A stretch of DNA of 64,000 nucleotides, taken from the IMG/VR virus record IMGVR_UViG_3300042261_001309, positions 1-64,000 of that record, one strand, 5' to 3'. The notes beneath the pieces were generated by a model, which saw only the letters and a program-made list of their open reading frames with translations, was not told the origin of the DNA and did not search any database. How positions within the stretch are numbered: position 1 is the stretch's first letter; each line of letters opens with the position of its first letter. Positions 237 to 26,900 of the stretch are shown here, piece by piece. Source of the DNA: a virus. The translations under genes and the position numbers were made by a program.

Positions 237-500
237 TTATAAAGGCCCGTAAGTCAACTCTCGCTGAGTCTCGGACTTAATTAATTCCATGACGTTGATT
301 ACACAAGTAACAAATTCACGCAATTCAACCATATTCTCAACTGACCACTGGCCGTCATGGAGACTTTTTATTGTAATCATACAGTTTCTGGCTGCTTTCA
401 GCTGAATTCTAAGCAGTAGTTTTATGTAGTTGCTTAAATCGTATTTGACCTCATCTATAGGATTCGGATTGAGATACGAAAATCTTCGTCTATTTGTCAT
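237..500 (-). CDS. Small hypothetical protein, array member
   Basis: 87-aa ORF; NRRRFSYLNPNPIDEV resembles NRQRLAYLRSNAVEEF in the adjacent open frame that runs off the left window end. Confidence 0.65.
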   Translation of the reverse strand: MTNRRRFSYLNPNPIDEVKYDLSNYIKLLLRIQLKAARNCMITIKSLHDGQWSVENMVELREFVTCVINVMELIKSETQRELTYGPL

Positions 501-642
501 AACAATTGTGTAAGAACATTAGGTTATAGCCTGAGTTCCGGTCCAAACAATCTAGATCTATATAATCGTCGGGCAGACATTGAAAAATCAATAACCTCAC
601 CGCTGATTTTTGCAAACCTATCGACAGCGTCATGCCAAGCTT

Positions 643-831
643 TTATGTTTTGTGTTGGCATAATACTTTTGTGATAAGCCTCGTGACAGTACCGATATCC
701 TCGCAATTTGTGTGATCTATCATATTTTTTAAATCCTCCTTGAGGAATCTTAAATCCAAAAAGCAATAATTCAACGTATACTGTATATCTTTGAGTTTAC
801 AGCGACAGTGGTAGATTTCACCTCTCTTCAT
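643..831 (-). CDS. Small hypothetical protein, array member
   Basis: 62 aa, overlaps the stop of the upstream gene, two amphipathic helices. Confidence 0.55.
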   Translation of the reverse strand: MKRGEIYHCRCKLKDIQYTLNYCFLDLRFLKEDLKNMIDHTNCEDIGTVTRLITKVLCQHKT

Positions 832-1021
832 TCATCCTCCAAGTTAGTAGATTTGCAAGGGTAACTGCTACTCTTTGTAATTCACAGCAATCCCCTAGAC
901 TTAACCTACCTCTTACCCTATGGGTATCTCCGTATAGATGTATTTTAAGTATAAAGGCTATAAACCGTAATTGCGCGGTTATAGCCTTTACGTGATCTTT
1001 CTTTTTCCTTAGTTGCTCCAC
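818..1021 (-). CDS. Small hypothetical protein, array member
   Basis: 67 aa, QLRFIAFILK...ELQRVAVTLANLL pattern, coupled to neighbours. Confidence 0.6.
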   Translation of the reverse strand: MEQLRKKKDHVKAITAQLRFIAFILKIHLYGDTHRVRGRLSLGDCCELQRVAVTLANLLTWRMNEER

Positions 1022-1287
1022 ATATTCGTAGTGGGTCGTTTTAACAATTTTTTAAGTGCTGCTTGCATGCCGGATAGATTTTCAACAGTTAGAACAGCTA
1101 GCAATGTCGGTTTATGTTTAACAGTATTTTTAATTATATCTATCGTGAATATTAAGCCTTCAAACATCGACCTTGTCTTTCTCTTAACTTCACGCCTACG
1201 GTACAGTTCGTCTGTTATTTTCTGATAGTACTTACGCAATTCAACGTAGGCTAAATCGTCGTAATAACTATCTTCGTAATGGAACAT
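1009..1287 (-). CDS. Small hypothetical protein
   Basis: 92-aa ORF overlapping both neighbours. Confidence 0.6.
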   Translation of the reverse strand: MFHYEDSYYDDLAYVELRKYYQKITDELYRRREVKRKTRSMFEGLIFTIDIIKNTVKHKPTLLAVLTVENLSGMQAALKKLLKRPTTNMWSN

Positions 1288-1504
1288 AGGGAGTATTCAA
1301 TAAACTCATGATAATACAATCTTGAACATGCCTAAATTGGCCGGCAATAAACTTAAACCTTTCTTCCCAAGGAGGAGTACCGTCGTGACCTAAATAGTAA
1401 AGTCCAGGCTTAGCGTGTATTTTAATATTTTTAACGTGCCTGACTAGACTAATCAGAGTTATATGCTGAGTAGCCCAATCGGCCGGATATTCTGCGCGTT
1501 CCAT
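1268..1504 (-). CDS. Small hypothetical protein
   Basis: 78-aa ORF in the coupled array. Confidence 0.55.
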   Translation of the reverse strand: MERAEYPADWATQHITLISLVRHVKNIKIHAKPGLYYLGHDGTPPWEERFKFIAGQFRHVQDCIIMSLLNTPYVPLRR

Positions 1505-1743
1505 AGCTTAAAATCAAAAACTCTTCAAACAGGGCCTTAATAACATCATACAATTCTCTTGAACAGCCATGAGCTGTCAGTTTATATATTTAAACCTCTC
1601 GAGCCAATGCCTTCGTAAAGACCAATTTGGTATGGGTTTAAACCCCGCGACCAGATGTACCTTAGTATGTCGTGCTGATTCTTCTAATGATTTAAACATA
1701 TGCTCCATTTGGTCAAACGCGAAGATATTGCTGATATTGCCGG

Positions 1744-1962
1744 CTAGAGTATAAGATGCCATATATCGCCCTTCAATAAATTGACACAGCAAGTTTGTAT
1801 TCCTTTAAGTTGAGGCCAAGCTCCTTCATGGTTGGCCGGCCAGTTGGAATATGAGGTTACGTGAAAATAGACATCCTTAGCGTAATGTCTTAATGTTTGC
1901 GTATGAAGGCGTAACCAGTAAATATATTCTCTAGTTATGGCAGGACTACTAGTGGTTGTCAT
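1744..1962 (-). CDS. Small hypothetical protein
   Basis: 72-aa ORF in the coupled array. Confidence 0.5.
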   Translation of the reverse strand: MTTTSSPAITREYIYWLRLHTQTLRHYAKDVYFHVTSYSNWPANHEGAWPQLKGIQTCCVNLLKGDIWHLIL

Positions 1963-2419
1963 TGTCTACCACAATGTGAGATTTAGGATTAAACAGGAAA
2001 TACCTGAGAGTTTCTTTATCTGCAAATAACTCCATATTTCTACCATTAGCGGCATTAGACTGGTGGTCAATATAAGCCTCTTCTCCTGTCTCTAGGTCAG
2101 GATCCATGTGCAGATGCCATTTAACTTTCTCTACCCCTAATTCCTCTTGAATTACTTCTTCCAGCATTTGCAACCATTGAGCAGCTTGGGCTGGATTAAC
2201 AATAGCCCTATATTGCGTCTGTAAATACGCGAATATCATTTTGGTACCCTCTTCATGGTGCTTTTTAGGTGTCCAACCAAACTCAAATCGACCGGTCCTG
2301 GAGTCCACCAAGTACATATAAGGGTTTGGCATTGTGGGCAGCTTCTCGTAATGTTCTTTAACAATTACGAGAAAACTAGCTGATGATGAGTTACTTACAA
2401 ATCCATTTCTTGTTTTCAT
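1949..2419 (-). CDS. FVSNSSS-motif protein 1 (hypothetical)
   Basis: N-terminus MKTRNGFVSNSSSASF, shared with 10893..11219 and 11984..12337; later YIDHQS segment. Confidence 0.8.
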   Translation of the reverse strand: MKTRNGFVSNSSSASFLVIVKEHYEKLPTMPNPYMYLVDSRTGRFEFGWTPKKHHEEGTKMIFAYLQTQYRAIVNPAQAAQWLQMLEEVIQEELGVEKVKWHLHMDPDLETGEEAYIDHQSNAANGRNMELFADKETLRYFLFNPKSHIVVDNDNH

Positions 2420-2434
2420 TTTTAAACATTAATA

Positions 2435-2596
2435 TCAATTTGATGATTGGATTAATTCCTTGGCGTATTTATGCACATACGTCAGATTTCTAGCAAGTGA
2501 CCAAGCAATGTGCGTAGACATTAATCTAGGCCAACTATATGCTTGCTTGGTCCATAACGCAAATTGCTGAATTAATAGTCTTTTTCTAGATATCAT
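2435..2596 (-). CDS. Small hypothetical protein, array member (53 aa, below ORF-track cutoff)
   Basis: Hand-translated MISRKRLLIQQFALWTKQAYSW...; shares ISRKRL with 4740..4970. Confidence 0.5.
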   Translation of the reverse strand: MISRKRLLIQQFALWTKQAYSWPRLMSTHIAWSLARNLTYVHKYAKELIQSSN

Positions 2597-2703
2597 TTTA
2601 ATTTACCCCCTAGATTGACCTTATAGGTTTCTAATACTTGTCTTACAGCTTTTGAGAAGATGGTTAAATTTTCAACACATACAGTGTACGTCTGTCATTT
2701 AAA

Positions 2704-2886
2704 TCAGTCATAGTTTAACACAGTTGTTAAATACCCTGCGTTTAAGCGCAGCCTGTAAGTTAGATACCACGGATCCATTAAACCCCATGCGTTATAATCA
2801 CTGGCGATTTTTATTTCTTCCTGCATAATATCCGCTATCTGAGATATTTTTGCCAGATTATCTTTAATTTCCTGTTTCACGGTCAA
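2704..2886 (-). CDS. Small hypothetical protein, array member
   Basis: EIKDNLAKISQIADIM N-terminal helix, similar to the neighbour RIKGNLWHFFLGTKAL. Confidence 0.6.
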   Translation of the reverse strand: MTVKQEIKDNLAKISQIADIMQEEIKIASDYNAWGLMDPWYLTYRLRLNAGYLTTVLNYD

Positions 2887-3082
2887 AATACCGCCTTTCG
2901 TCTTTGAGTGGATTTAATAAACCTGTAATATTACGGCGCAGTTCATTTATGATGGGGACATTGAAGCAGTCAAAACTGCCTAAGCGTAAACCAAACCAAC
3001 CTGTGGTTATTTCATCTTTCAAGGCTTTAGTACCCAGAAAGAAATGCCATAAATTACCTTTAATTCGTGCTTTCGGGCGCAT
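2864..3082 (-). CDS. Small hypothetical protein, array member
   Basis: 72 aa, IKGNL start, C-terminal helix NELRRNITGLL. Confidence 0.6.
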   Translation of the reverse strand: MRPKARIKGNLWHFFLGTKALKDEITTGWFGLRLGSFDCFNVPIINELRRNITGLLNPLKDERRYFDRETGN

Positions 3083-3216
3083 TTAGTATTTTTAATAATA
3101 GGGAAGTTGCCCTAATTAATTTAAGGATATCCTCCCGTTTGTGTTTATCTGACCATACACGGTTAAAATTTATACGCAAATGCAACATGTAACTAACCCA
3201 AACCAACCACTGCAGA

Positions 3217-3402
3217 TTATTCTTTAAATCGTGCATATTTCAATACCTGGGCAAGTCGATCTCGTACAGTCAGCAATAACCCACAGTTGTAACTGATCAT
3301 GGTTATATTACTGTAGCGCGCTACTGCAAATTTTAACCATCCAATATCAGAGTACAATAAAGATATATCTGCTTCTATTTGCTCAAGGACTGAATTATCC
3401 AT
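3217..3402 (-). CDS. Small hypothetical protein, array member
   Basis: LYSDIGWLK...NCGLLL...LAQVL resembles LYASIRVVK...SCSCLL...IAQVL in the sub-cutoff ORF at about 3547..3723. Confidence 0.6.
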   Translation of the reverse strand: MDNSVLEQIEADISLLYSDIGWLKFAVARYSNITMISYNCGLLLTVRDRLAQVLKYARFKE

Positions 3403-3566
3403 ATAGCCATCTCGTTTAATGTCGAAGCAATCGGACGATCGAAAGGCGTCCTATTTAATTTTAACGCCAAATTTATTTTGCGTTTACACCAATCCGAGTA
3501 TTGCGCTATAGCGTCTAAATCTACGTATAGCATATAATCAAATTTTTTAGTCATACGCTTTGGCAT
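3375..3566 (-). CDS. Small hypothetical protein, array member
   Basis: 63 aa, DLDAIAQYSDW...LNEMAIWIIQSL. Confidence 0.55.
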   Translation of the reverse strand: MPKRMTKKFDYMLYVDLDAIAQYSDWCKRKINLALKLNRTPFDRPIASTLNEMAIWIIQSLSK

Positions 3567-3719
3567 GTTTTCTAATAAGTAAAACCTGTGCTATGGATTG
3601 TGCATTTAATAAGCATGAACAGCTAAAGGCAGTTTTTGGGCTTTTGCTATGTTCCTTCACCACCCGAATACTTGCATATAAGTACTTGAGCATGTAACGA
3701 TTATCTGAGATTGTGTCGT

Positions 3720-3959
3720 TCATCTAATTTTCAGTAATAGCTGCTCTAGTTTATATACTGCGTTGTTAACGGCTATAGCTCCCACACCGTAAGCAGTATT
3801 TATGTTTAGATCTTCTAGACGTTTAAGCCCAACTACAGACAATTTAAACGTCTCTATCATGCCTTTAATAACACTAATGCGCAGCCTCCGTTCAATAGAT
3901 TCTCGACCTTTTTTAGTCCTTATCTTAGCCTTAAATTGGGCATAAGTTAAAGTTCTCAT
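3720..3959 (-). CDS. Small hypothetical protein
   Basis: 79 aa, ATGA-coupled on both sides. Confidence 0.6.
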   Translation of the reverse strand: MRTLTYAQFKAKIRTKKGRESIERRLRISVIKGMIETFKLSVVGLKRLEDLNINTAYGVGAIAVNNAVYKLEQLLLKIR

Positions 3960-4165
3960 GAATTCTCGGCTACCGCGATAACGTGGCGGCAGTCATAATT
4001 AATTCTTCGTAAAGTAAATATATCCCATTTGCCTATGTGGCTAAATACGTGTAGATTACGCTTGTGATACGCCAAGGTCTCCAAGTTGGCGAGTATTTCT
4101 TTAAATCTACCTCGATACCACGTGAATTGACCCATCGACACTTTATGCTGGCTGTCAGTAACCAT
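3956..4165 (-). CDS. Small hypothetical protein
   Basis: 69 aa, coupled. Confidence 0.5.
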   Translation of the reverse strand: MVTDSQHKVSMGQFTWYRGRFKEILANLETLAYHKRNLHVFSHIGKWDIFTLRRINYDCRHVIAVAENS

Positions 4166-4362
4166 TTTTCAGTACGTCCTTTAATAAGTCGGTTTAGATT
4201 TCTTATCTCTCATGGTTTAATATTTTCACCAACAAGGCGGTTACACGCCCAAGCCTGATTACTAAGCAGTCTTGCTGTATAATGAATGGCAAAGGATAAT
4301 AGATTTGGTGGAAGGTGTAAGCTTCTGTAAAAAACCTATTCACATAGTGGCTTAACTTTTTA

Positions 4363-4554
4363 TTAGCGACTGCGATTATCATAGTTCAGTCGGAATCTAA
4401 TTATTTTAGTCATATCGTGGAGCCATCTCATAGGTGCCAGGCCTAAAGATACTGCGCGATGTCTACTAATACGCCAATGATACTTTAAGTCAGTACTGAC
4501 GGCATAAACACACCTTAATTCCAGTCGGTATTGTGCTTTAATTGGGTTAGACAT
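4363..4554 (-). CDS. Small hypothetical protein, array member
   Basis: ELRCVYAVSTDLKYHW...WLHDMTKII resembles 4547..4759 and 5599..6039. Confidence 0.6.
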   Translation of the reverse strand: MSNPIKAQYRLELRCVYAVSTDLKYHWRISRHRAVSLGLAPMRWLHDMTKIIRFRLNYDNRSR

Positions 4555-4759
4555 TTGATTTTAAAGTAGCAATTGTTTGATCTTTTAAGTCTAATAGCTT
4601 GCTTAATACACCTCGCGATATTTCTCTAGGTAAATTAAAGCGGTAATGCCAATAATTTTTTAGCCCACGAGAACAAAAAAGGATAAAGCTTAAATCTGAC
4701 TTCCAATCAACTATACGCTCGTGCTTAAAGGTCATTACATTATTTTTTGAGTAATTCAC
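4547..4759 (-). CDS. Small hypothetical protein, array member
   Basis: Clear paralog of the N-terminal half of 5599..6039. Confidence 0.7.
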   Translation of the reverse strand: MNYSKNNVMTFKHERIVDWKSDLSFILFCSRGLKNYWHYRFNLPREISRGVLSKLLDLKDQTIATLKSNV

Positions 4760-4970
4760 ACAGATTACAGATTAATTGCCTAGTCTGACAGATTCCAAAC
4801 CACAGTGTTGTAAAGTTGTTGTCGGCTAGTTTTTCCATTTTGGTTAATTTTTTAATCGTTTTGCATAAGCCGACAGTAAGCGTGAGTACTAGCCGTTTAC
4901 GACTTATAACGTATCCAGCTGCTGGTAAAGAACTAAGCAGCCTCGATTCCGAAGAATGGTTTTGATTCAT
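4740..4970 (-). CDS. Small hypothetical protein, array member
   Basis: 76 aa, ISRKRL motif. Confidence 0.55.
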   Translation of the reverse strand: MNQNHSSESRLLSSLPAAGYVISRKRLVLTLTVGLCKTIKKLTKMEKLADNNFTTLWFGICQTRQLICNLCELLKK

Positions 4971-5029
4971 TTAATTTATTTGGGTTATTTCCATCACGCA
5001 TTTCAAGCAACTTGTGACGTAGTTACCGG

Positions 5030-5251
5030 CTATAACGTTCTTCGGTCATAAACGTCCGATAACAAGTCAATTAAGCGAAGTAGAATATCATACAAATAAT
5101 CTATAAGGTCGGAATTTCCCCTCATTCTAGGGTTAATTCGTTCAGTTAATCTTCGTAGCGTAAAAGCGGAATGCCGTAATTCCACCAAGTCTATATAAGG
5201 CCGATAGTGTTTTATTTGCATAACAACTGGTGCAATCTGAAAGCTGTGCAA
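5030..5251 (-). CDS. Small hypothetical protein, array member
   Basis: DLVELRHSAFTLRRL...YLYDILLRLIDLL. Confidence 0.55.
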   Translation of the reverse strand: MHSFQIAPVVMQIKHYRPYIDLVELRHSAFTLRRLTERINPRMRGNSDLIDYLYDILLRLIDLLSDVYDRRTL

Positions 5252-5395
5252 TTTAATTCATATATTAATTTCTTACCCATAGGTTTGGAATGTGGCGATC
5301 GTACAGTAGCTAGGCATTCAATAGCTAAAAATTTAATGTAGCCGATATCTGATTGGACCATTCTTTTATAGCTCAATGATCGAAAGTCGCAGGCT

Positions 5396-5602
5396 TTAGT
5401 GTTGAGGTTCATCGTGCAATCTAGACATAAATTCGTCCAACAATTGGTGAGTCCATGCGGCCATATTTCTAGTAAGCTGCCTTGCTGGTCGAGTAGGATA
5501 ATGTCCTTGGTCATTCCATTGTGACCTAACCAAGCTGGAAACAAACGCAATACTCTTTAAGACTACTCGTTGCCTATATATGTGTATCTTGGTTGTATTC
5601 AC
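5396..5602 (-). CDS. Small hypothetical protein, array member
   Basis: LKSIAFVSSLVRSQW...LTRNMAAWTHQLL, GTGA-coupled. Confidence 0.55.
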   Translation of the reverse strand: MNTTKIHIYRQRVVLKSIAFVSSLVRSQWNDQGHYPTRPARQLTRNMAAWTHQLLDEFMSRLHDEPQH

Positions 5603-6039
5603 TTGTAGGGTTGATAGGTGAAATCGTCTAAAATGTATCTAAGTTCGCTTGCTTGGCTTTCTAACTTTACCGTTAAAGATTTATCGAATATTGCGTAGCT
5701 TTTCCACATCCAGCTTATCAAATGTACAGCATGAATAAGGTGTTGTAGGTCTATTTCCTGACTTTCTATCAAGTCTTTATCTCGCATAACAGGTAATGTA
5801 ATTTTTTTTAAAATCATTCTTAGCTCAATTGCATAAACTTTGGCTTTAAATGTGTAAGCCGCTAAAATATATTTAGTTTGGTCCGTCATGTCTAATAACC
5901 GATTTAAGACACCTCGAGTCAAACAAGTTCGAAAATGATGATTAAGGTACCAGAAAGCACTAACTGACCGAACGCAACTTAATATAAACCGTAAGTCGTC
6001 GATTAACCTATATATTATTTGTTGTTTATCGTTTTTCAT
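5599..6039 (-). CDS. Hypothetical protein, fused double unit of the array family
   Basis: Two copies of the pattern: DLRFILSCVRSVSAFW and DLQHLIHAVHLISWMW, each followed by a helix ending KYIL/RYIL. Confidence 0.65.
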   Translation of the reverse strand: MKNDKQQIIYRLIDDLRFILSCVRSVSAFWYLNHHFRTCLTRGVLNRLLDMTDQTKYILAAYTFKAKVYAIELRMILKKITLPVMRDKDLIESQEIDLQHLIHAVHLISWMWKSYAIFDKSLTVKLESQASELRYILDDFTYQPYK

Positions 6040-6235
6040 TTATGCTGGCGTAATTGAATGCTAAATTTATAATTCTTAACGTACGACGTAAAAAGAATAC
6101 TGTGTTATATCCATGCTTAGCGTAACAGGCTTCATGCGGCCACGCCGCTTTCAGCTTTTTTGTACTTATCTTCATTAGAAATAATTCATATTTGATACTC
6201 CCAGAATTAATTCTGGGATTCTGGTTATTTTGCAT
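6026..6235 (-). CDS. Small hypothetical protein, array member
   Basis: IKYELFLMKISTKKLKAAW pattern. Confidence 0.6.
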   Translation of the reverse strand: MQNNQNPRINSGSIKYELFLMKISTKKLKAAWPHEACYAKHGYNTVFFLRRTLRIINLAFNYASINEKR

Positions 6236-6354
6236 CTTTTAAAAAATTACAGAGTTTTTGCAGCATAATCCGTAGTTCTCCGACTTTCACTCGTTTCTCA
6301 GGTGTAAATTCAGCTAGGCTATACTTAGCTTGAATTCTTATTGATCTAAGCCTA

Positions 6355-6561
6355 CGTGCCGCAAACTCTACCGATCTTTGTTGTGCATTCATGTTCAGTG
6401 TAATTCAGTAATTCAATTACTCCTATTGCGATCATGTCTAAATAAACCATTATACTCTAACTACTCAACCCTGGGCGCGTCAATTGATTAGTACAAGATT
6501 TAATCATTGTCAGCTTAAATCGAATTAACACTTCGGCTTCTTCTTTACGACGATCTTCCAT
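6355..6561 (-). pseudogene. Array member interrupted by an in-frame TAG
   Basis: MEDRRKEEAEVLIRFKLTMIKSCTNQLTRPGLSS*SIMVYLDMIAIGVIELLNY; the TAG at 6457-6459 splits helix 1 from helix 2; left coordinate approximate. Confidence 0.45.
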
Positions 6562-9352: not shown

Positions 9353-9601
9353 TTACAGATGATGTAGTCTAGGTTTACCGGCATAATCGTCAACCGATAT
9401 ACGCTTATCATGCCCATCAAATCCTACACAGGTTTTTTCATTGGCCCATTTATCGTGTGAACCATTAATTAGATGTATATTACCGTTTAGCTTGCCAATA
9501 TAGCTGTCAGGCTTGCAACCATAACAAAAGTCACCCAGATGAAATACGTGGTCATCTGGCTGTACTTTATCGTTCCAATTGGCAATTAATTGCGCGTCCA
9601 T
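9353..9601 (-). pseudogene. Truncated calcineurin-like metallophosphoesterase
   Basis: MDAQLIANWN..V...D.VFHLGDF...HLINGSHD matches the central motifs; the first DxH motif (in-frame stop 8 codons upstream) and the C-terminal GHxH are absent. Confidence 0.65.
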
Positions 9602-9608
9602 CTCTTGT

Positions 9609-9857
9609 TCATAGTCTAATGGTTATTCCTTTAAGTGGTTCTTCTATATAGCACTTATTGTGTTCGGTTTTATTAACAAGTGCAGCCGTGTATAAGGCAT
9701 ACAGACAAACGACTAACAATAAGGCCGCCCAAAACCTACTTTGTTCCTCCAAGTTTATTCCGTCTTGTAAATGCGTATCCACCAAAAATACCAAGGCACT
9801 TAAGGCGAATACGAAGATCGTGATTATTTCCCACATATTCAACATTACATCACTCAT
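9609..9857 (-). CDS. Small membrane protein (2 TM)
   Basis: Two hydrophobic stretches. Confidence 0.55.
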   Translation of the reverse strand: MSDVMLNMWEIITIFVFALSALVFLVDTHLQDGINLEEQSRFWAALLLVVCLYALYTAALVNKTEHNKCYIEEPLKGITIRL

Positions 9858-10909
9858 ACGTTAAAGTGGTAGCAACCACGTTGTTGTGCTTCTGCGGTAA
9901 TTATATTGTTACGAGTATTAAGTACTTCGGTGTGATTCCATAAAGATAGGAAATCAGGCGCAGTTAAAACGTCCAATCCATCCCGCCATACAGGTAAATT
10001 TTCTCCTTCAATAAATGAACAAGGAAAGTATTTACCTTCGACATTAATATAAGCTCCAGTTTTTGTTGCTTCACAAGGTTCAACAAACTGAGCGTTCAGT
10101 TTAGCAATAGCCGGTGATAACGCAGCCATTAGCTTAGGCGCCCCGCATGAGTCACAGCCATAGTTAATACCTAGTTCAGCACACTTGTCAGTTACTTGTT
10201 TAAACTCATCCGCAGTAACTGAATTTAAATGTACTCCTCTGCCCTTTTGCTTGGCCATAAGAAATACAATGGCTTTTAAGTTAGCCAGTCTAGGATCATG
10301 TTTAATATCCTCTAATGTTTCGAAGATGGCCGATAACGTAGGCTTTGCTACGAGCTGATGTATAGTCACTTGCTTTAACCCGTTGTCAGTCAACAACTTA
10401 ACTGCGTCATAGCATATATTTTTGTTATTGTACCGGCTGACTGCACAGGCACCGGCCCATTTAGCTATATTTTTAGCTGTCTCTTCCGTAATCCTAGCTA
10501 CGGTTAAGTTAGGTATAATGTTATTCTTACGACAGTGCTCAAATATACGCCAAATATCAGGATTGGCCGTAGCCTCAGCATCTACTCCAAATGCAATTTG
10601 AGTTAAGAAATGTTCACCGTTATATTTAGGAAACTTACTGAGAATGGCTTTAAACGTATCCAAGGACATATGCTCCCCTTTAGGTGTATTGGCTTTATAG
10701 CAATGCATGCAGCCTTCATAGCACTGCGTAGTTAATTCAATGTCAGCCAATTCAGGGCCATAAGGAGAAAATACCGGATCGTCATCCAGGCTCCTTCCCC
10801 AACGAATAAATTTACCGCTACTTAAATTGAATCGGTAATTATAGTCCTCCGACTCGAAGCATTTCCAAAATTCACCCGTTTGCGGGCTTAATTTAAGCGT
10901 TATTTTCAT
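9854..10909 (-). CDS. Radical SAM enzyme with C-terminal SPASM/twitch-like Cys domain
   Basis: CYEGCMHC (CxxxCxxC); C-terminal CDSC, CEA...YINVEGKYFPCSF and GC cysteines. Confidence 0.9.
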   Translation of the reverse strand: MKITLKLSPQTGEFWKCFESEDYNYRFNLSSGKFIRWGRSLDDDPVFSPYGPELADIELTTQCYEGCMHCYKANTPKGEHMSLDTFKAILSKFPKYNGEHFLTQIAFGVDAEATANPDIWRIFEHCRKNNIIPNLTVARITEETAKNIAKWAGACAVSRYNNKNICYDAVKLLTDNGLKQVTIHQLVAKPTLSAIFETLEDIKHDPRLANLKAIVFLMAKQKGRGVHLNSVTADEFKQVTDKCAELGINYGCDSCGAPKLMAALSPAIAKLNAQFVEPCEATKTGAYINVEGKYFPCSFIEGENLPVWRDGLDVLTAPDFLSLWNHTEVLNTRNNIITAEAQQRGCYHFNV

Positions 10910-11219
10910 TGTTAACTGTAAAACCGTAGTTGGTCAGCATTAACGAATCCAATATTCCATCTGAAGTATTTTTATCCACCTGCAAGCCCAATTGTTTAAG
11001 TAAGTATATGGATAAATCACCGTTGTCTATATAAGTTGAGCCTCTTAGGAATTGGTCATTCTCAATTAAGCTAAATTCCCATTCATCCGCCAAGGGATCG
11101 TTGTGGACCGCTTCAGGATAGTCCAAGATTAATTGGTATTGCTTAGCCGTCAATCTATTAAGGGCAACAGTAAAACTCGCTGAAGACGAATTACTGACGA
11201 AGCTTTGGCGTATTTTCAT
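10893..11219 (-). CDS. FVSNSSS-motif protein 2
   Basis: MKIRQSFVSNSSSASF; its stop overlaps the radical SAM start. Confidence 0.8.
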   Translation of the reverse strand: MKIRQSFVSNSSSASFTVALNRLTAKQYQLILDYPEAVHNDPLADEWEFSLIENDQFLRGSTYIDNGDLSIYLLKQLGLQVDKNTSDGILDSLMLTNYGFTVNNENNA

Positions 11220-11554
11220 AGGTTTTGTAGATTTAAGTAATCATTTACTTCATTAAAATTTTCAACCGGCATCCATAAATAGTGCTTATTTAAGAATGTT
11301 TCCAAGCTACTTTCACGAGCATAGTTATCTCCGTATCCGACATAGATATTTTCGTTCGGATATTTAGCCTGCAATTGTTCAAATGGAATATCAACCGAGT
11401 ATTTTTCTCCCTCATGGTTATATGCAACCGGTTGCCAAATAAACCAACCGTCTTCACCGTAGCCAAAACACACGTTCTCGGTGGATATCACTAATATCCG
11501 TTCATCTGGCTTTGGTTTTACTTCGGTCGATTTATTAAAGGTTAAAACAATCAT
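11216..11554 (-). CDS. Hypothetical protein
   Basis: 112 aa, ATGA-coupled. Confidence 0.65.
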   Translation of the reverse strand: MIVLTFNKSTEVKPKPDERILVISTENVCFGYGEDGWFIWQPVAYNHEGEKYSVDIPFEQLQAKYPNENIYVGYGDNYARESSLETFLNKHYLWMPVENFNEVNDYLNLQNL

Positions 11555-11669
11555 AATACACTAACCTTTACATGCTTTATCAGCCACACAATAAGATCAC
11601 ACAATTTCCACGCTCCTAGAGGTAGCAGTAGAACAACCGCGAATTCCAGCTTGGTCGTATATTTATTTA

Positions 11670-11981
11670 TCATTTAGGCCTCACTTCACATACAGCGTTA
11701 TGCTTCATTTCATCCAATGAATATTCTTTGTTAAATTCCCAGCAATCGTTTTCTTTTAACACATATAAAGTTTCATCTAGCTCATTAGCAACGGCTTGCA
11801 AATTATCCCTATCCTTTACCAAGCTAATATCTCCGTACCATATCTTGCCCCTGTTCTCGATGGTAATATTAGCGTTCCAGATAACTTGGTGTTCCTGTGG
11901 TGCTACCTTGGAATAGCTTATCAATCTACCTACCCACAAATTGTGTTTGGCAAAAATGTCCAATATCGCGTCTGTAAGCAT
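11670..11981 (-). CDS. Conserved-type phage hypothetical
   Basis: GRLISYSK...NANI...KIWYGDI...LYVLKE pattern. Confidence 0.7.
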   Translation of the reverse strand: MLTDAILDIFAKHNLWVGRLISYSKVAPQEHQVIWNANITIENRGKIWYGDISLVKDRDNLQAVANELDETLYVLKENDCWEFNKEYSLDEMKHNAVCEVRPK

Positions 11982-11983
11982 AA

Positions 11984-12337
11984 TTAACCTGCTCTGTGTA
12001 ATATCTGTATTTCTTTACTATTGTTAACTAATTCGTTCAATTCTTGGTCATGGTAACTGATGGCTACGTACGCCAATTCTTCATCGGGTTGTAATACTGC
12101 CGCCTTGACCAATTCAACTAACTCATTGTCGTGATAAGGTTTAAGATAATGTAAAATGTCTTTCTTACCAATTGCAATAGTGCGCGTATCGTCTGAATAA
12201 GTAGTGGTTGCATATGCCATCTTGGACAGCAAATCTGGCGCTTTCAGTCCACAATATTCACATCTTTTCGCTGGTTTAATTATCACCAAAAAACTACTGC
12301 TACTTGAATTACTAACAAATCCATTTCTAATTTTCAT
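11984..12337 (-). CDS. FVSNSSS-motif protein 3 with CxxC
   Basis: MKIRNGFVSNSSSSSF followed by CEYC. Confidence 0.8.
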   Translation of the reverse strand: MKIRNGFVSNSSSSSFLVIIKPAKRCEYCGLKAPDLLSKMAYATTTYSDDTRTIAIGKKDILHYLKPYHDNELVELVKAAVLQPDEELAYVAISYHDQELNELVNNSKEIQILHRAG

Positions 12338-12365
12338 ATAGGTACATTTATTTCCAAGTTGTTGT

Positions 12366-12394
12366 TTGCATTCTGTAACATTTTACGGTACAGT
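12366..12394 (+). promoter_or_regulatory. Sigma70-like promoter
   Basis: TTGCAT-17 nt-TACAGT ending 8 nt before the GTG at 12403. Confidence 0.45.
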
Positions 12395-12402
12395 CTTAGT
12401 TA

Positions 12403-13158
12403 GTGAGAGCGAGAAAGTGGCAATTTTTACCGATCATAGTAGGCATAATTTGCCTATCTGGCTGCTCGCTGTTCCGTCCCAAGGACAAAGAATTTTTTCA
12501 AAAGAAAGTAATCGATGTCCCGGAAAAGATTACTCCTGCTTACAGTGAAACCCAACGTCAGGGTTTACAATACGTTAAATACAACGTAGATCAGGCATAT
12601 GTTGCTGCGCTGCAAGAACAAGCATCAACTAACGTCACGCAGCCTCTAACCAATGCCATAACGGTTATCGATCCTTTAATCGTTCAAGCTGGCCCGCCAA
12701 TTAAAGCCTATCAAGGAGATCCAGTTAAGTTAGCGCAGTGGATTAATAAAACTGCGTCTGACTATAATAAAGCGATCGATAAATATACAGATAAGATCGA
12801 ACCTTTAGTTGGTAAAAAGATCGAAGGAACAGGTTGGATTCAGATGGGTTATTTCACCTGGATAGGCTTCCTGTTGTTCGGTCTATTTTTACTGTATGCG
12901 GTCACTAAGATTGTGCTAAGTATTTGGTTTCCAGCTATTAGTGTGGGCGCTCGGTCAGTCAGCAATCTGACTAGTTCGGCCGTCTCTAAAGCGTTATCCC
13001 AAGTAATATCCGGTGGTGAAGCGTTTAAAACAATGCTCGACGATCATCTGGATGACCAAGCCACAATCGATAAAGTCAAAGAACTATTTAAAATTGCTCA
13101 AAATTCCAAACAAGATCAACACGTTCAAGACACAATTAAGGTCTTAACTGTAAAATAA
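12403..13158 (+). CDS. Lipoprotein with an additional TM helix (spanin-like candidate)
   Basis: Signal peptide with lipobox LSGC (Cys21); TM segment around aa 150-176. Confidence 0.6.
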   Translation: MRARKWQFLPIIVGIICLSGCSLFRPKDKEFFQKKVIDVPEKITPAYSETQRQGLQYVKYNVDQAYVAALQEQASTNVTQPLTNAITVIDPLIVQAGPPIKAYQGDPVKLAQWINKTASDYNKAIDKYTDKIEPLVGKKIEGTGWIQMGYFTWIGFLLFGLFLLYAVTKIVLSIWFPAISVGARSVSNLTSSAVSKALSQVISGGEAFKTMLDDHLDDQATIDKVKELFKIAQNSKQDQHVQDTIKVLTVK

Positions 13159-13164
13159 CTTATT

Positions 13165-13668
13165 ATGCCTACCTACGCGCAACTCTGGAAAAAATATTCT
13201 CGTCTAGCTGCTTCAGTTGCAGCTACCCTAACAGCTATTGGTTCCATTTATTTATTCGTTGAGAATGTTGCCAGTGTATCTGCCCGTGTAGGTAGCAATA
13301 CTGAAAAACTGCTGCTGCATACTGGCAGTATTTCCAATCTTCACGATCGCGTTGATGCTCTGCATGAAGAAGTTAAGCTTGATGCTGATCAGGATAAACA
13401 CGTTAAAATGTTAATTGATCAATTGGTTGTAATCGCTAAGGATAACAAACAGCGTATTGATGAATTGGATAAACGCGCAGCTGTAAATAGCTCAGTTACT
13501 GAACAGCTCGTAACTATAGCCAAAGAAAATCGCGAGCGAATTAATTCTTTGGATAGAACTACCACAATGTCTCAAGCTACCCTCAACTACATTAAAGACG
13601 AGGTATGTGAAATTAAAGCTGATGTCAAAGAACACCTTCTTGAGAATAAGCTCACCAAGAAGCAATAA
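13165..13668 (+). CDS. N-terminal TM plus coiled-coil protein (holin/i-spanin-like)
   Basis: Hydrophobic N-terminal helix, then heptad repeats with an internal duplication QLV.IAK.N..RI..LD. Confidence 0.55.
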   Translation: MPTYAQLWKKYSRLAASVAATLTAIGSIYLFVENVASVSARVGSNTEKLLLHTGSISNLHDRVDALHEEVKLDADQDKHVKMLIDQLVVIAKDNKQRIDELDKRAAVNSSVTEQLVTIAKENRERINSLDRTTTMSQATLNYIKDEVCEIKADVKEHLLENKLTKKQ

Positions 13669-14390: not shown

Positions 14391-14594
14391 TTAATTTGTT
14401 TTCAGCCAGATTTTTAATACGCCGTCTGCTACACTAGTGTTATATAATTTAAACTTAGTAAGCTCTAACGGTTCAGCGTAATCCTCACGAATTTTATATA
14501 TTTCTACCAAAGTGGCCTCACTCAGTTCGGTTAAAAGATCTTCAACCACTGCGATTTTACGTCGCAGTTCTTCGGTTAGGTGCATATCTATCAA
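14391..14594 (-). CDS. Small helical hypothetical protein
   Basis: 67 aa, similar N-terminus to 14180..14371 (M.LTE). Confidence 0.5.
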   Translation of the reverse strand: MIDMHLTEELRRKIAVVEDLLTELSEATLVEIYKIREDYAEPLELTKFKLYNTSVADGVLKIWLKTN

Positions 14595-15336
14595 TCAGCC
14601 AATAATTTCGTACTTTATTGTATAAGGGCAGTAATACGTGTTCTTGCGATGCGATTAGTGTTGTGCTGCCGTCCCAATAGCCGTAACTTGCCATTGGCTC
14701 AGCATAAAATTTAAAATTACGGTATTTCTCAGCTGCGCGCAGCCACAGCATTAAGTCGTTACCAATCATCATTGTCTTATGCCATATGAAATCCCTACCG
14801 AAGTTTTTATCACATTCAGCTAGTGTTTCAACTACATGGTCAGTTTTAAATAAGCCGGATACAGGGCTAATACTTTCAATATTTGTATCTGCTGCAACTT
14901 TAAGTAATTTAGCCGATGAATATACTCCAGTTATTAAATTTGGAAAATAACTAACAAACGGTAAACCATACTTAGTGGCATTTGGTCCGTGAGCTATGCA
15001 ATTCCAATGGTAAAACCCAACATTGGAATTCAGGTCTTTTTCCAACAATTTAAACCTAGGTAATACTCGGTCATCGTCATGCAGGATATATGTCCAAGGA
15101 GTGGTAACCAGCTTGGCGCCTCTTAACCATGCTTCGTTATTACCTTTATCTTCTTTAATCGCGGTAATAACTGTATCTGGTTTAATTTTCCGTATTCGAT
15201 TATGTACCAACGCTAATTCGGCATCTTCTCCAGATGAGGTAATGATTAGGTTCTTTACCTCGGCGGCTAGACAGCTTTGAAATGCTTCCATCAACAGCCG
15301 TGGTCGTTTGTAGTTGGTTATGACTACTGTGATCAT
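14557..15336 (-). CDS. Glycosyltransferase family 2 (GT-A)
   Basis: ITVVITNYKRP N-terminal motif, LHDDD (DxD), GNDL. Confidence 0.85.
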   Translation of the reverse strand: MITVVITNYKRPRLLMEAFQSCLAAEVKNLIITSSGEDAELALVHNRIRKIKPDTVITAIKEDKGNNEAWLRGAKLVTTPWTYILHDDDRVLPRFKLLEKDLNSNVGFYHWNCIAHGPNATKYGLPFVSYFPNLITGVYSSAKLLKVAADTNIESISPVSGLFKTDHVVETLAECDKNFGRDFIWHKTMMIGNDLMLWLRAAEKYRNFKFYAEPMASYGYWDGSTTLIASQEHVLLPLYNKVRNYWLIDRYAPNRRTAT

Positions 15337-16085
15337 TGTTTTTTCAACTTATTTTTTAGCCAATAGCCTCTAGTCCGGTTGTAAATAGGTAACAACCTTC
15401 GTTCATGCGCATCAATACACGACGTGCTACCTTCCCAATAACCATAACTCGCCATCGGTTCAGTATAGAATTTGAATAACGGGTATTTCTCTGTTGCTCG
15501 TAACCACAGCATCAAGTCATTGCCTACCATCATGTTTTCACGCCAAAGGAAATTAGGACCGAAGTTCTTTTCACACTCAGCCAGCGTTTCAACTACATGG
15601 TCAGTTTTAAATAAACCGGCTACTGGACTTATGCTGTTATAGCTTGGGTTGGTCATTATGCCGGCAAGCATAGTCGATGGATATATACCAGCCGGCATGT
15701 TAGGAAAATAACTATGCTTACCAAATGTACCCATTCCATGCTTAGCACAATCCCAATGATAATAACTGATATCTGGGTCTAATTCCCGTTCCAATAAACC
15801 AAATCTAGGCAATACCCAATCATCATCATGCAAGATATATGTCCAAGGAGTAGTAACTAATTTTGCTCCTCTCAACCACATCTCATTGCAGCCCAGATCA
15901 TTAGGTATTGCCGTAATTGTTGTATCCGGTTTAATCGCCTTTATTCGACGATGGATTACCGCTAATTCTGCATCAGTACCGGATGATGAAATAACGATAT
16001 GCTTCACGTTAGCCGCCAAACAACTTCTAAACGCTTCCATCAATAACAATGGGCGCTTATAGTTGGTTATAACTACAGTAATCAT
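15333..16085 (-). CDS. Glycosyltransferase family 2 (GT-A), tandem paralog
   Basis: Same motifs; long identical blocks with 14557..15336 (GAKLVTTPWTYILHDDD, GLFKTDHVVETLAEC). Confidence 0.85.
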   Translation of the reverse strand: MITVVITNYKRPLLLMEAFRSCLAANVKHIVISSSGTDAELAVIHRRIKAIKPDTTITAIPNDLGCNEMWLRGAKLVTTPWTYILHDDDWVLPRFGLLERELDPDISYYHWDCAKHGMGTFGKHSYFPNMPAGIYPSTMLAGIMTNPSYNSISPVAGLFKTDHVVETLAECEKNFGPNFLWRENMMVGNDLMLWLRATEKYPLFKFYTEPMASYGYWEGSTSCIDAHERRLLPIYNRTRGYWLKNKLKKQ

Positions 16086-23945: not shown

Positions 23946-26900
23946 ATGGCAGAAATCAGGGTAGATACACATCAAGACCTTTTAGACAATGAGCTACGTA
24001 ATGCGGTTATTGGAATCGTTACTGCTAGTTCATTGACCGGTATAAGTACAGCTACTGGTAAAATTGTTACGCATGACTACCCAGATCCAGCAAGACTAGC
24101 TTGGTACAATGGCACAGAATGGCGTTATTTAGATGATCAAGTAGTTGTTGGTTCGTCCTTAACGGCCGATAGGCTGTTAATTTCTACTACCTCAGGATGG
24201 ACAACCAGTATATTGGGCATTAATTCTTCGGGTAGCCTTGTACTAGGCGTTGGTAGTGCTTCACCGCATTATATTGAAAATGTCGCCACACCTATTACAG
24301 ATTATCAAGCTGCCAATAGATTATTCGTATTGAATACCTTAAGTGGCGCCTCAGATATTCATGCCGCAGCTAAGTTAAAATCAATTGCGAATTTATCTTC
24401 TCTTACTTTTCCTACAGCAGATACAGGTAATTATTTTGATGCGGATTATACGCTACTCAACGGTGACCGCGTATTATTGACAGATCAGATATCTTTACCA
24501 ACAAACGGTATTTACACGGTAGGCATCGGGTCAGTAAATACTACGTTAACCAGGGCGACTGATGCGGATGAAACCGGTGAATTAAAAAATGGTTCGTCTA
24601 TTTTGGTCACACAAGGAACTGTTTGGGGTAGTACATCTTGGGCAATTGCCGATTGTGACACCACAATCACTATCGGTACGAGCGATATTAAATGGGTACA
24701 AACTGCAGCCAGTCGAGAATATACGGCAGGCGCAGGATTAACGTTAACTGGTAGTGTATTCGATATAGGCACTGGCGATACACAAGCCATTGTGGTTGGC
24801 GCTAACAGTATTAATTTATACGACAATCTAACTACAGCTAGAACAAATAAAACAAAGTTTAGCGTAAATAAATACGGTGTTATTACCTCCGTTGATGAAA
24901 TTACCTCAGCTAACGGAATTGTACTTAGAACAGCCGCAGATACTTATTCCGCGTTAACCGGTACAGCTAATTATGTACCGAAATGGTCAGGTACTTCATT
25001 AAGTTCTACTTCATTAATTTATGACACTGGTACAGCGGTTGGAATTGGAACTACCACTCCAGCTACGTTATTGCATGTAAACGGTGCATTAACTGTAGGT
25101 GTATTAAGTGGGGTATTAAAAGCAACCACAGGTTTAGTATCTGGATTAGCCGGTATTAACGATTTAAGTGATGTTGCAGCGGGTACAGCTACTACGGGTC
25201 AGCTATTAGGATATAACACAGCTACCAGTAAATGGATTAACGTTACACGCACCGTAAACACTACAACTCCGTTAAGTGGTGGCGGTGCCTTAACTGGTGA
25301 TATTACTTTAACCTTAGGTGGACTTACTGGAATCGGCACAACAAATTACGTACTAGGCGTTAATGCTGCTGGTGCCGCTTGGGAGTATAAAGCAATCCAA
25401 GCCACGGCGTTGCAAACAACGGTAAGCCATAGTGCTAATGCTGTTACTATCGGTACCGTGCAAGGTATTGGTACGGTTTCTACACCTACCTTTGCTGACT
25501 TGTATTTAACTGGGATGACTGGGCAAATAATCACGTCCACCTCAGTAAAAACAGCCATCCAAGATTTAGATGATTCCGCGTATAAAACTACTCAAACTGG
25601 TTTTGATAGCTGGAGCGGTAGCGGCAATTACTACAGTGTAACTGGCGCTGTGGGCAGCCAGATGTTTAATTTGCTGCGTGGTGGTTATGCCTACGTTAAA
25701 GGTAAAAAAGTAACCTTTAGTGGTGGTCAAAGCATAAGTGTTGGTACTTCCAACCAAGCTTATTATATTTGGGTTAGCTCGGCTGGAGCTATAGGCACCA
25801 CAACTTACACTAATTTAAATGAAACCAGCTATTTGGATAACGCAATGTTATTTGAGGCGCTGAACGATGGCACTAACGTACTGGTGGTAAAAGAAAATCA
25901 TCCGTATAGTATGAATACGGCCGCCAGTGTATATATTCACCACAATATTGGCATTGTAATACGAGGTTCTGGCGCAGTAATTACCCAAGTAACCACAGGT
26001 ACAGGAACGACCGTTACCGATCGTAAAGTAAGAATTGCCGGTAACGATTATCTTGAAGACCACGGCATAGTTACCAATATTTCAAATACTGTCGCTGGTG
26101 TAACGTGGAATTTTTATTATCAAGACAACTATGGTAAATGGCTGAGACATTCACAAAGCGATGAATTTCCAATTGTTTATTTAGATACTGATGCTTCTGC
26201 AGGTGGCACTATAACCACAGTCGCAAATTCAAAGTTTAGTATTATTTGCCTGTATGTATCTAAAGACGATTTAAATTCAAGCTCTCCTACTTACTACGCG
26301 GTTATAAATCGAGCAACTGAGCCATATTCCAACTCTAGTGACGCGTTAAACGCTATTACTGCCGGCAATTTCTCTATAGCTTCAAATGAACTAGCTTCTT
26401 TAGAGTTAGCACAGCTAGGTTATGCTGTAATTGCCGGTAATACCGGAGCCGGCTATATTTTCAGAGTAATTCCAGCTAAGAGCACAATTAACGCCAGGTT
26501 TATTGGTGGATCGTCCACAGGTATACACGGCTTGCTTTCTGGTTTAACTGCAGATGATCATACGCAGTACGCTTTACTTGCTGGGCGCATAAGTGGACAA
26601 ACCCTTTATGGTGGGACTACAACCGGAGAAACACTAAAGCTATTTGGTACAGCATCCGGCACTGGTAATGTATTTATTAATTCAAGTGGTGGTAATGTGG
26701 GTATCGGCACTACGGTAGCCAGTACCACATTACATGTTGGTGGTAGTTTAACACTCGGTACATTAAGCGGAGTATTAAAAGCCACCGCCGGTTTAGTTTC
26801 TAATTCTGCGGGGATTGACGATTTAAATGATGTAACAATTACCTCTGCTGCCACAGGCCAATTATTAGGCTACAGCACTGTAACTGGGCAATGGTCGAAT

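Follow-up and report, generated by a model that had tools for sequence, protein, structure and literature searches.

Tagged reading frames of the window

The subject of this analysis is a stretch of viral DNA of 64,000 nucleotides, termed the window herein (positions 1 to 64,000 of the IMG/VR virus record IMGVR_UViG_3300042261_001309), which encodes an enzyme of the radical S-adenosylmethionine (SAM) type together with three small proteins that begin with almost the same 16 residues, referred to below as the tag. The complete record spans 127,116 bases, with a CheckV completeness of 61 %. The enzyme gene is located on the minus strand at 9854..10909 and specifies 351 aa, with a Cx3Cx2C motif, a CX13GX4C motif and two further invariant cysteines, C255 and C346. 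Each of the tagged open reading frames (ORFs) is likewise on the minus strand. That at 10893..11219 encodes a protein of 108 aa beginning with MKIRQSFVSNSSSASF, the 16 codons of the tag occupying 11172..11219, and belongs to core cluster 2 (31 members) when the sequences behind the tag are compared. The ORF at 11984..12337 (117 aa; core cluster 7, 8 members) begins with MKIRNGFVSNSSSSSF, has its tag at 12290..12337 and carries CxxCGRSD and SYHD motifs. The third, at 1949..2419 (156 aa; core cluster 5, 15 members), begins with MKTRNGFVSNSSSASF, has its tag at 2372..2419 and displays EFGW, IDHQS and NDN motifs; this gene is located downstream of that for the enzyme, at a distance of 7.4 kb.

The tags were delineated by six-frame scans, codon comparison and a tag hidden Markov model (HMM). 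Scanning of both the window and the whole record for the start MK[TI]R[NQ][GS]FVSNSSS[AS]SF returned exactly these three ORFs, to which the HMM assigned 38–42 bits, compared with 12 bits for the runner-up. A preliminary description of this DNA, made from its letters alone, had reported three otherwise dissimilar proteins with nearly the same 16 residues, one of them overlapping the start of the radical-SAM gene. Both observations are borne out, the former by the scans, the HMM and the assignment to three different core clusters, and the latter by an overlap of 17 bases between the stop of the 108-aa ORF and the start of the enzyme gene. The same account placed the ORF at 11984–12337 at the head of a transcription unit; it is the first minus-strand ORF past a divergent gap at 12338–12402 and may begin such a unit, scanning for promoters and terminators having been uninformative (26 promoter sites against 37.1 in shuffled sequences). 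Two untagged ORFs (11216–11554 and 11670–11981) separate the 108-aa and 117-aa tagged genes and are conserved nowhere else. A blastn comparison of the region with GenBank phages gave no match, and the 117-aa tagged protein, used as query in a word-based search, retrieved only two proteins.

The agreement between the three ORFs is not due to chance, since the same residues are specified by different codons, and since 27,155 clusters share the tag. The latter figure refers to representative clusters retrieved at E ≤ 0.001 by a tag-dominated profile from a library of 1.84 billion (2,576 at E ≤ 1e-10), and all ten of the matches sampled carry the tag. The 158 unique ORFs from related loci yield the consensus M-K-[I]-R-x-G-F-V-S-N-S-S-S-S-S-F-[IV]-[IV], and, of 167 unique ORFs, 158 have the tag at their very first residue. 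Positions K2, R4 and G6 are near-invariant, despite lying outside the search pattern, and alignment of 136 tagged representatives reveals invariant columns at M1, R4, N10, S11, S12 and S15. PHROGs family phrog_7397 is found in 82 of these 136 proteins, and covers tag residues 1–20 in the single alignment inspected. The codons of the tag vary freely, to the extent of two-base AGY/TCN serine switches, and the DNA upstream displays only a purine-rich ribosome-binding region of generic type. As synonymous codons vary and the upstream signal is merely generic, the tag is selected as a peptide, rather than as a DNA or RNA element; judged by its codons, then, it is under selection at the protein level.

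Certain predicted proteins (P0125–P0130 and P0136) contain two complete tags each, every tag having its own methionine. These look like two adjacent tagged genes read as one, possibly because a stop codon has been lost or recoded.

The enzyme and its linkage to the tag

Within the enzyme, the Cx3Cx2C motif at C63, C67 and C70 corresponds to the radical-SAM motif for the SAM-binding 4Fe–4S cluster. In an alignment of 30 homologues C70 is invariant and C63 and C67 are at least 90 % conserved; further invariant positions are Q104, A106–G108, P133, N134, T136, G153, S158, Q180, H184, D253–C255, C279, E280, C297–F299 and C346. The window enzyme scores 19.4 bits against the Pfam model Radical_SAM (PF04055), below the cut-off of 29.5, and matches phrog_7293 at 5.8e-79. 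A word-based search yielded 713 homologues at E ≤ 0.001, some of which carry PF04055 or the SPASM family PF13186 in precomputed annotation, and the nearest Atlas clusters (TM 0.92–0.94; 94–100 % viral) are radical SAM/SPASM proteins. NCBIfam matches of the family are weak, fall far short of cut-off and without exception concern maturases of peptides or proteins, with no anaerobic sulfatase-maturating enzyme (anSME) or FxsB model amongst those of the 30 members. By hmmscan, no Pfam match to a PqqD-like recognition domain was obtained in the enzyme at E ≤ 0.1. Sequence searches of the Protein Data Bank (PDB) with the enzyme and its profile returned nothing meaningful, and a single-protein locus search for the enzyme returned nothing.

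The enzyme had initially been labelled a SPASM protein. We take the SPASM motif to comprise two halves, CX9–15GX4C and CX2CX5CX3C. The first is present as C279-X13-G-X4-C297 in the window enzyme and occurs in 29 of 30 homologues, whilst the second is present in none of the 30 phage-clade members, with the window enzyme having a single cysteine (C346) after C297. The label is thus apt for one half only; as CX9–15GX4C is kept and CX2CX5CX3C is absent, the phage-clade enzyme probably retains one auxiliary cluster and would be twitch-like, as that term is used in the available portion of PMC10114670. A bacterial homologue from Acetatifactor possesses the full CX2CX5CX3C motif.

The radical-SAM match is broken into two to four pieces in four viral records (G005, G020, G047 and G048), and has stop codons within it in another (G016). 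The radical-SAM gene of Slopekvirus has been reported to be split, with a GIY-YIG homing endonuclease alongside (PMC9960720).

Linkage was assessed from both sides. The enzyme profile was used to fetch 55 viral loci, 50 of which have tag ORFs within 10 kb, and tags occur somewhere in 52 of the 55 enzyme-bearing records. The five loci without a nearby tag include a 97 %-complete record with three tags 28–56 kb away and another with one; the remaining three records are fragments (9, 11 and 41 % complete). With a stricter tag pattern, 163 tag ORFs were found in 47 of the 55 loci (median 3 and maximum 13 per locus), all on the strand of the enzyme gene, 155 of them downstream and 8 upstream. For the reverse comparison, a degenerate DNA pattern of the tag identified at least 120 viral stretches. 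The count made here covers 49 of 58 candidate records, none of which was already in the enzyme set; among the matches listed, 34 of these 49 hold the enzyme, including all six that are at least 90 % complete. Whichever of the two is taken as the starting point, tag and enzyme therefore co-occur within genome records, and an independent distribution, one of the grounds on which the proposed connection could have been abandoned, is rejected. Clustering of all ORFs from 56 neighbourhoods revealed no third conserved family near the enzyme, and no conserved peptidase.

The enzyme is also present in 173 GenBank phage records, comprising phages of Klebsiella, Enterobacter, Cronobacter, Citrobacter and Escherichia, with KP27, Matisse, RB43 and Lw1 among them. 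Both KP27_124 and KP27_130 of phage KP27 are tagged proteins, and homologues of KP27_130 occur in 175 GenBank phage records, with a tally by genus that nearly matches that of the enzyme. In prokaryote contigs the tag pattern was found in 118 stretches of at most 8 kb each, 67 of which hold the enzyme. In Veillonella parvula and Acetatifactor muris, operons that open with a protein of metallo-β-lactamase (MBL) fold (PADLOC: LmuA 4e-56, Avs1a 2e-36) continue with a trypsin-like protease fused to a NTPase of the NACHT/STAND (signal transduction ATPases with numerous domains) type (Avs2 1e-17), followed by a small protein, and end with one tagged protein of 137 aa and a full-SPASM enzyme. Such trypsin–MBL modules are described as known defence effectors in the published excerpts available. 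A plasmid of Agrobacterium harbours a cassette of small protein, tagged protein and radical-SAM enzyme after a SMEK_N+NACHT protein, and the order in bacterial cassettes is STAND, small protein, tagged protein, radical-SAM. A STAND homologue is found in 19 of 40 loci with bacterial-type (low-scoring) enzyme, as opposed to none of 27 phage-type loci, and no STAND gene lies beside the pair in the window. From these various occurrences it is apparent that the pair is a genuine and widespread two-gene system.

Three of the bacterial loci (L202, 2423–7998; L185, 1061–7997; L309, 3583–8035) encode a tagged protein of 131–137 aa and a small protein of 121–142 aa.

Client proteins, predicted docking and proposed mechanism

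Removal of the first 18 residues from 345 unique tagged proteins, hereafter clients, left sequences that fall into 106 BLAST clusters, with the three window proteins belonging to three different recurrent clusters. When the 21 largest clusters were compared by hhalign with the tag removed, a single pair of 210 reached 90 % probability, the next four lying at 46–56 %. The clients range from 19 to 269 aa in length, and Pfam analysis of 136 of them revealed no common family. In an AlphaFold2 (AF2) model of the 156-aa protein (mean predicted local distance difference test, pLDDT, 79.7; predicted template modelling score 0.78) residues 1–13 fall below a pLDDT of 50, as do residues 1–11 in that of the 108-aa protein (pLDDT 67.5). 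In both models the first β strand begins at residues 14–16, and of the tag region only residues 14–19 join it. The two differ in topology and share no PDB match; Foldseek comparison of each with the PDB gave no match at E ≤ 0.001, and the best Z in a VIA wide fold search was 3.1. A lead towards Tad2 from the Atlas (TM 0.60 by query, 0.40 by row) was dropped, as there was no Pfam match and no Tad2 among the fold matches listed. Taken together, alignments of the cores indicate that the sequences behind the tag are unrelated.

To model the complex, the enzyme alignment was combined with tag residues 1–40, SAM and two 4Fe–4S clusters. The predicted docking has ipSAE values of 0.87, 0.88 and 0.92, against 0.00, 0.16 and 0.00 for controls, with contact agreement of at least 87 % and partner pLDDT of at least 62; the docking mark, which 58 of 80 solved complexes attained, as did two of 110 mismatched pairs, is a rough guide here, given that own alignments were used and ligands included. 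In the model, tag residues 1–22 all contact the enzyme, on and inside the barrel. Residues 2–4 (K-I-R) are predicted to pair in a β-strand-like fashion with enzyme residues 32–37 (conserved G-x-F-x-R-W), within the 55-residue N-terminal extension of the enzyme, and also lie near 274–275. The stretch F-V-S-N-S-S-S-S-S-F threads into the barrel, where F7 touches invariant Q104, N134, G153/A154 and Q180. The modelled complex, with its controls, supports binding of the tag by the enzyme, and so lends weight to the view, already put forward in the preliminary description, that the tag is a recognition site.

We favour, with a probability only a little above one half (about 0.55), a two-part system in which one radical-SAM enzyme modifies unrelated client proteins at an invariant and flexible N-terminal tag. 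The tag is very probably the recognition site of the enzyme, and the odds are about even that it is also the site altered. The clients would be unrelated folded domains with the common flexible tag M-K-I-R-x-G-F-V-S-N-S-S-S-S-S-F, of which K-I-R would dock as a strand on enzyme residues 32–37, the serine-rich stretch entering the barrel. A 5′-deoxyadenosyl radical would take a hydrogen within F7–S15, with a covalent change remaining; at a best guess, this would be either an intramolecular F-x-S crosslink (cyclophane or ether) or a serine oxidation of the kind performed by anSME. In this manner, one enzyme may mature all of the tagged proteins of a phage, being three here and up to 13 elsewhere. 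The clients themselves are probably fast-evolving accessory or conflict proteins, since the bacterial form of this pair accompanies STAND immune operons as an add-on.

Several observations weigh against such a modification system. A docking model is not catalysis, and the predicted complex is silent on chemistry; no member of the enzyme family reaches any curated family cut-off; and 15 of the 49 tag-bearing records are without the enzyme among the matches listed. All of these 15 are at most 40 % complete, and, being fragments, therefore constitute neither support nor refutation. The KP27 tags lie 19–23 kb from the enzyme gene, compared with 0–7 kb in the window, and so linkage holds for the genome, and not always for the operon. 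A further point is that the conserved leaders of peptides made by the ribosome and modified after translation (RiPPs) usually act as a handle, rather than as the modified site, according to the available portion of PMC10114670. The tag may, by the same token, be a docking handle only, by which variable adaptor or client domains are tethered to the enzyme, with the latter modifying a core residue, a third protein, or a nucleic acid or small molecule delivered by the core, or it may plug and regulate the enzyme. Both co-occurrence and the docking model fit this equally well, and Avap1, the radical-SAM protein of the KpAvs2 operon, is required against only some phages, its substrate being given as unknown in the accessible text of PMC11564622. 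However, the cores offer no common residue or fold for one active site, every serine of the tag is near-invariant, beyond what binding should need, and F7 is deeply buried in the model, surrounded by invariant residues of the barrel, and not in a surface groove. We thus regard a handle without modification of the tag as doubtful, whilst deserving of serious attention.

It is unlikely that the tag is instead a sorting or stability signal (capsid targeting, export or a degron) unrelated to the enzyme, with the radical-SAM gene a mere syntenic neighbour. The tag is indeed N-terminal, flexible and borne by unrelated small phage proteins, much as internal proteins of phage T4 share a common short N-terminal targeting peptide. 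The pair persists, however, in jumbo-phage arrays, in T4-like phages where the genes are 20 kb apart, in bacterial chromosomes and on the Agrobacterium plasmid. Some of the 118 prokaryote stretches with a tag lie in chromosomal or plasmid STAND cassettes, where capsid sorting has no obvious role, and the docking scores, as predicted, are far above those of controls. More improbable again is that the clients are diverged paralogues of one fold, with the tag as its conserved first strand and active-site loop. Residues 14–19 do form the first β strand in both models, and D/H/N motifs follow this strand in several clusters (MDNFD, IDHQS, SYHD). Set against this are the single pair of 210 above the hhalign threshold once the tag is removed, the breadth of client lengths, the unstructured residues 1–11/13 and the dissimilar topologies with no common PDB match. 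The notion that the tag is simply the first strand of a shared fold, a weakness foreseen when the tag was first noticed, is therefore rejected as far as these comparisons and models extend.

Of the known systems, anSME and AtsB are similar to the proposed arrangement in that a radical-SAM enzyme with a C-terminal Fe–S domain acts on whole proteins near a serine, by the N-terminal region. Differences are nonetheless evident: the tag is without the (C/S)xPxR motif (we take the anSME substrate motif to be (C/S)-x-(P/A)-x-R), there is no family-model match, the phage enzymes are without the CX2CX5CX3C half of SPASM, and in place of a single enzyme family the clients comprise numerous small proteins unrelated to one another. 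RiPP maturases provide a second parallel, with one enzyme serving many substrates that have a common recognition sequence, and with adjacent genes. Here, by contrast, the variable part is a folded domain of 80–270 aa and not a short core peptide, whilst the conserved part is the extreme N-terminus, itself serine-rich, and hmmscan gave no PqqD-like domain. An F-x-S-x-x string within the tag is a likeness to the XyeB, GrrB and FxsB systems. Cyclophane makers follow an Ω-x-x three-residue rule. According to the sections available of PMC10114670, XyeB, GrrB and FxsB enzymes make cyclophanes and AtsB oxidises serine via abstraction of a Cβ hydrogen.

Radical-SAM/SPASM genes beside variable proteins that carry a conserved C-terminal FxSxx piece were described by Kaur, Burroughs, Iyer and Aravind in 2020 (PMC7159879, in the excerpts available). 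The NTPase conflict systems reported there resemble the present pair in uniting a radical-SAM enzyme with variable proteins bearing a conserved piece, and in their STAND-class (AP-ATPase) operons. In those systems, as excerpted, the conserved piece is C-terminal and released by a peptidase (PMC7159879), whereas here F-V-S-N-S is N-terminal, the phage loci have no conserved peptidase and no FxsB model is found among the NCBIfam matches. The relationship of the tag to the FxSxx systems is hence one of resemblance, and not of membership.

A further counterpart in gene content is KpAvs2-Avap1-Avap2 of Klebsiella pneumoniae (Bechon et al. 2024), which, in the available text of PMC11564622, comprises a STAND receptor, the radical-SAM protein Avap1 and a small receptor-binding protein, Avap2, defined by an HHpred match to DUF6375 (PF19902). 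The bacterial cassettes found here also join STAND, small protein and radical-SAM enzyme, whilst the window is phage DNA with no STAND gene beside the pair. Searching by hmmscan, which is less sensitive than the HHpred of that paper, found no PF19902 in 20 bacterial tagged proteins or the adjoining small proteins; there was also nothing over cut-off in five genomes and none in the precomputed Pfam annotation of 120 listed relatives. As a true DUF6375 protein for comparison was not found in 402 genomes either, no connection between Avap2 and the tagged or small proteins could be established. The Ophion defence system was also considered, and is a different radical-SAM system as far as the available part of its report indicates (10.1101/2025.09.30.679545).

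No published paper was found to contain the tag motif strings, and no description of the tag was found in literature on phage radical SAM enzymes, RiPPs, Slopekvirus or KP27; the pair is probably an undescribed protein-modification system. If the favoured reading of tag modification is correct, radical-SAM maturation would extend to entire proteins that are unrelated but for an N-terminal tag of 16 residues, across at least 27,155 representative clusters, with new post-translational chemistry and a portable tag–enzyme pair. A role would thereby be suggested for the radical-SAM genes, so far unexplained, of RB43/KP27-type phages and, possibly, for the radical-SAM gene of STAND (Avs-type) operons, for which the substrate is unknown in print as far as the available text of PMC11564622 extends. 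More tentatively still, conversion of the serine-rich N-terminus into a new structure (a strained F-x-S crosslink, or a serine-derived aldehyde or cofactor) may possibly mark proteins of tens of thousands of unrelated families as activated, in a universal manner. It would then serve both sides of the phage–bacterium conflict, in phage accessory or anti-defence proteins as well as in small subunits of STAND receptors, and phage arrays might mimic or jam such receptors.

Other features of the window

Facing the block of tagged genes are two plus-strand ORFs (12403–13668) that resemble membrane proteins or lipoproteins, to which another description, also drawn from sequence only, gave a spanin-like label. 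At 9353–9601, on the minus strand, an ORF of 82 aa matches only positions 58–115 of the 245-position phosphoesterase family phrog_547 (2e-14), and may be a gene fragment. The minus-strand region at 237–6392 contains approximately 25 back-to-back small ORFs of 53–146 aa, mostly with overlapping stops and starts, many of which are two-helix-like. Pairwise BLAST similarity in this array is confined to 4547–4759, 5599–6039 and 6225–6392, and the whole may be a very diverged array of paralogues. Tandem paralogous ORFs of 259 and 250 aa lie on the minus strand at 14557–15336 and 15333–16085, with near-identical N-termini (MITVVITNYKRP...). Finally, a single plus-strand ORF of 5,445 aa occupies 23946–40283.

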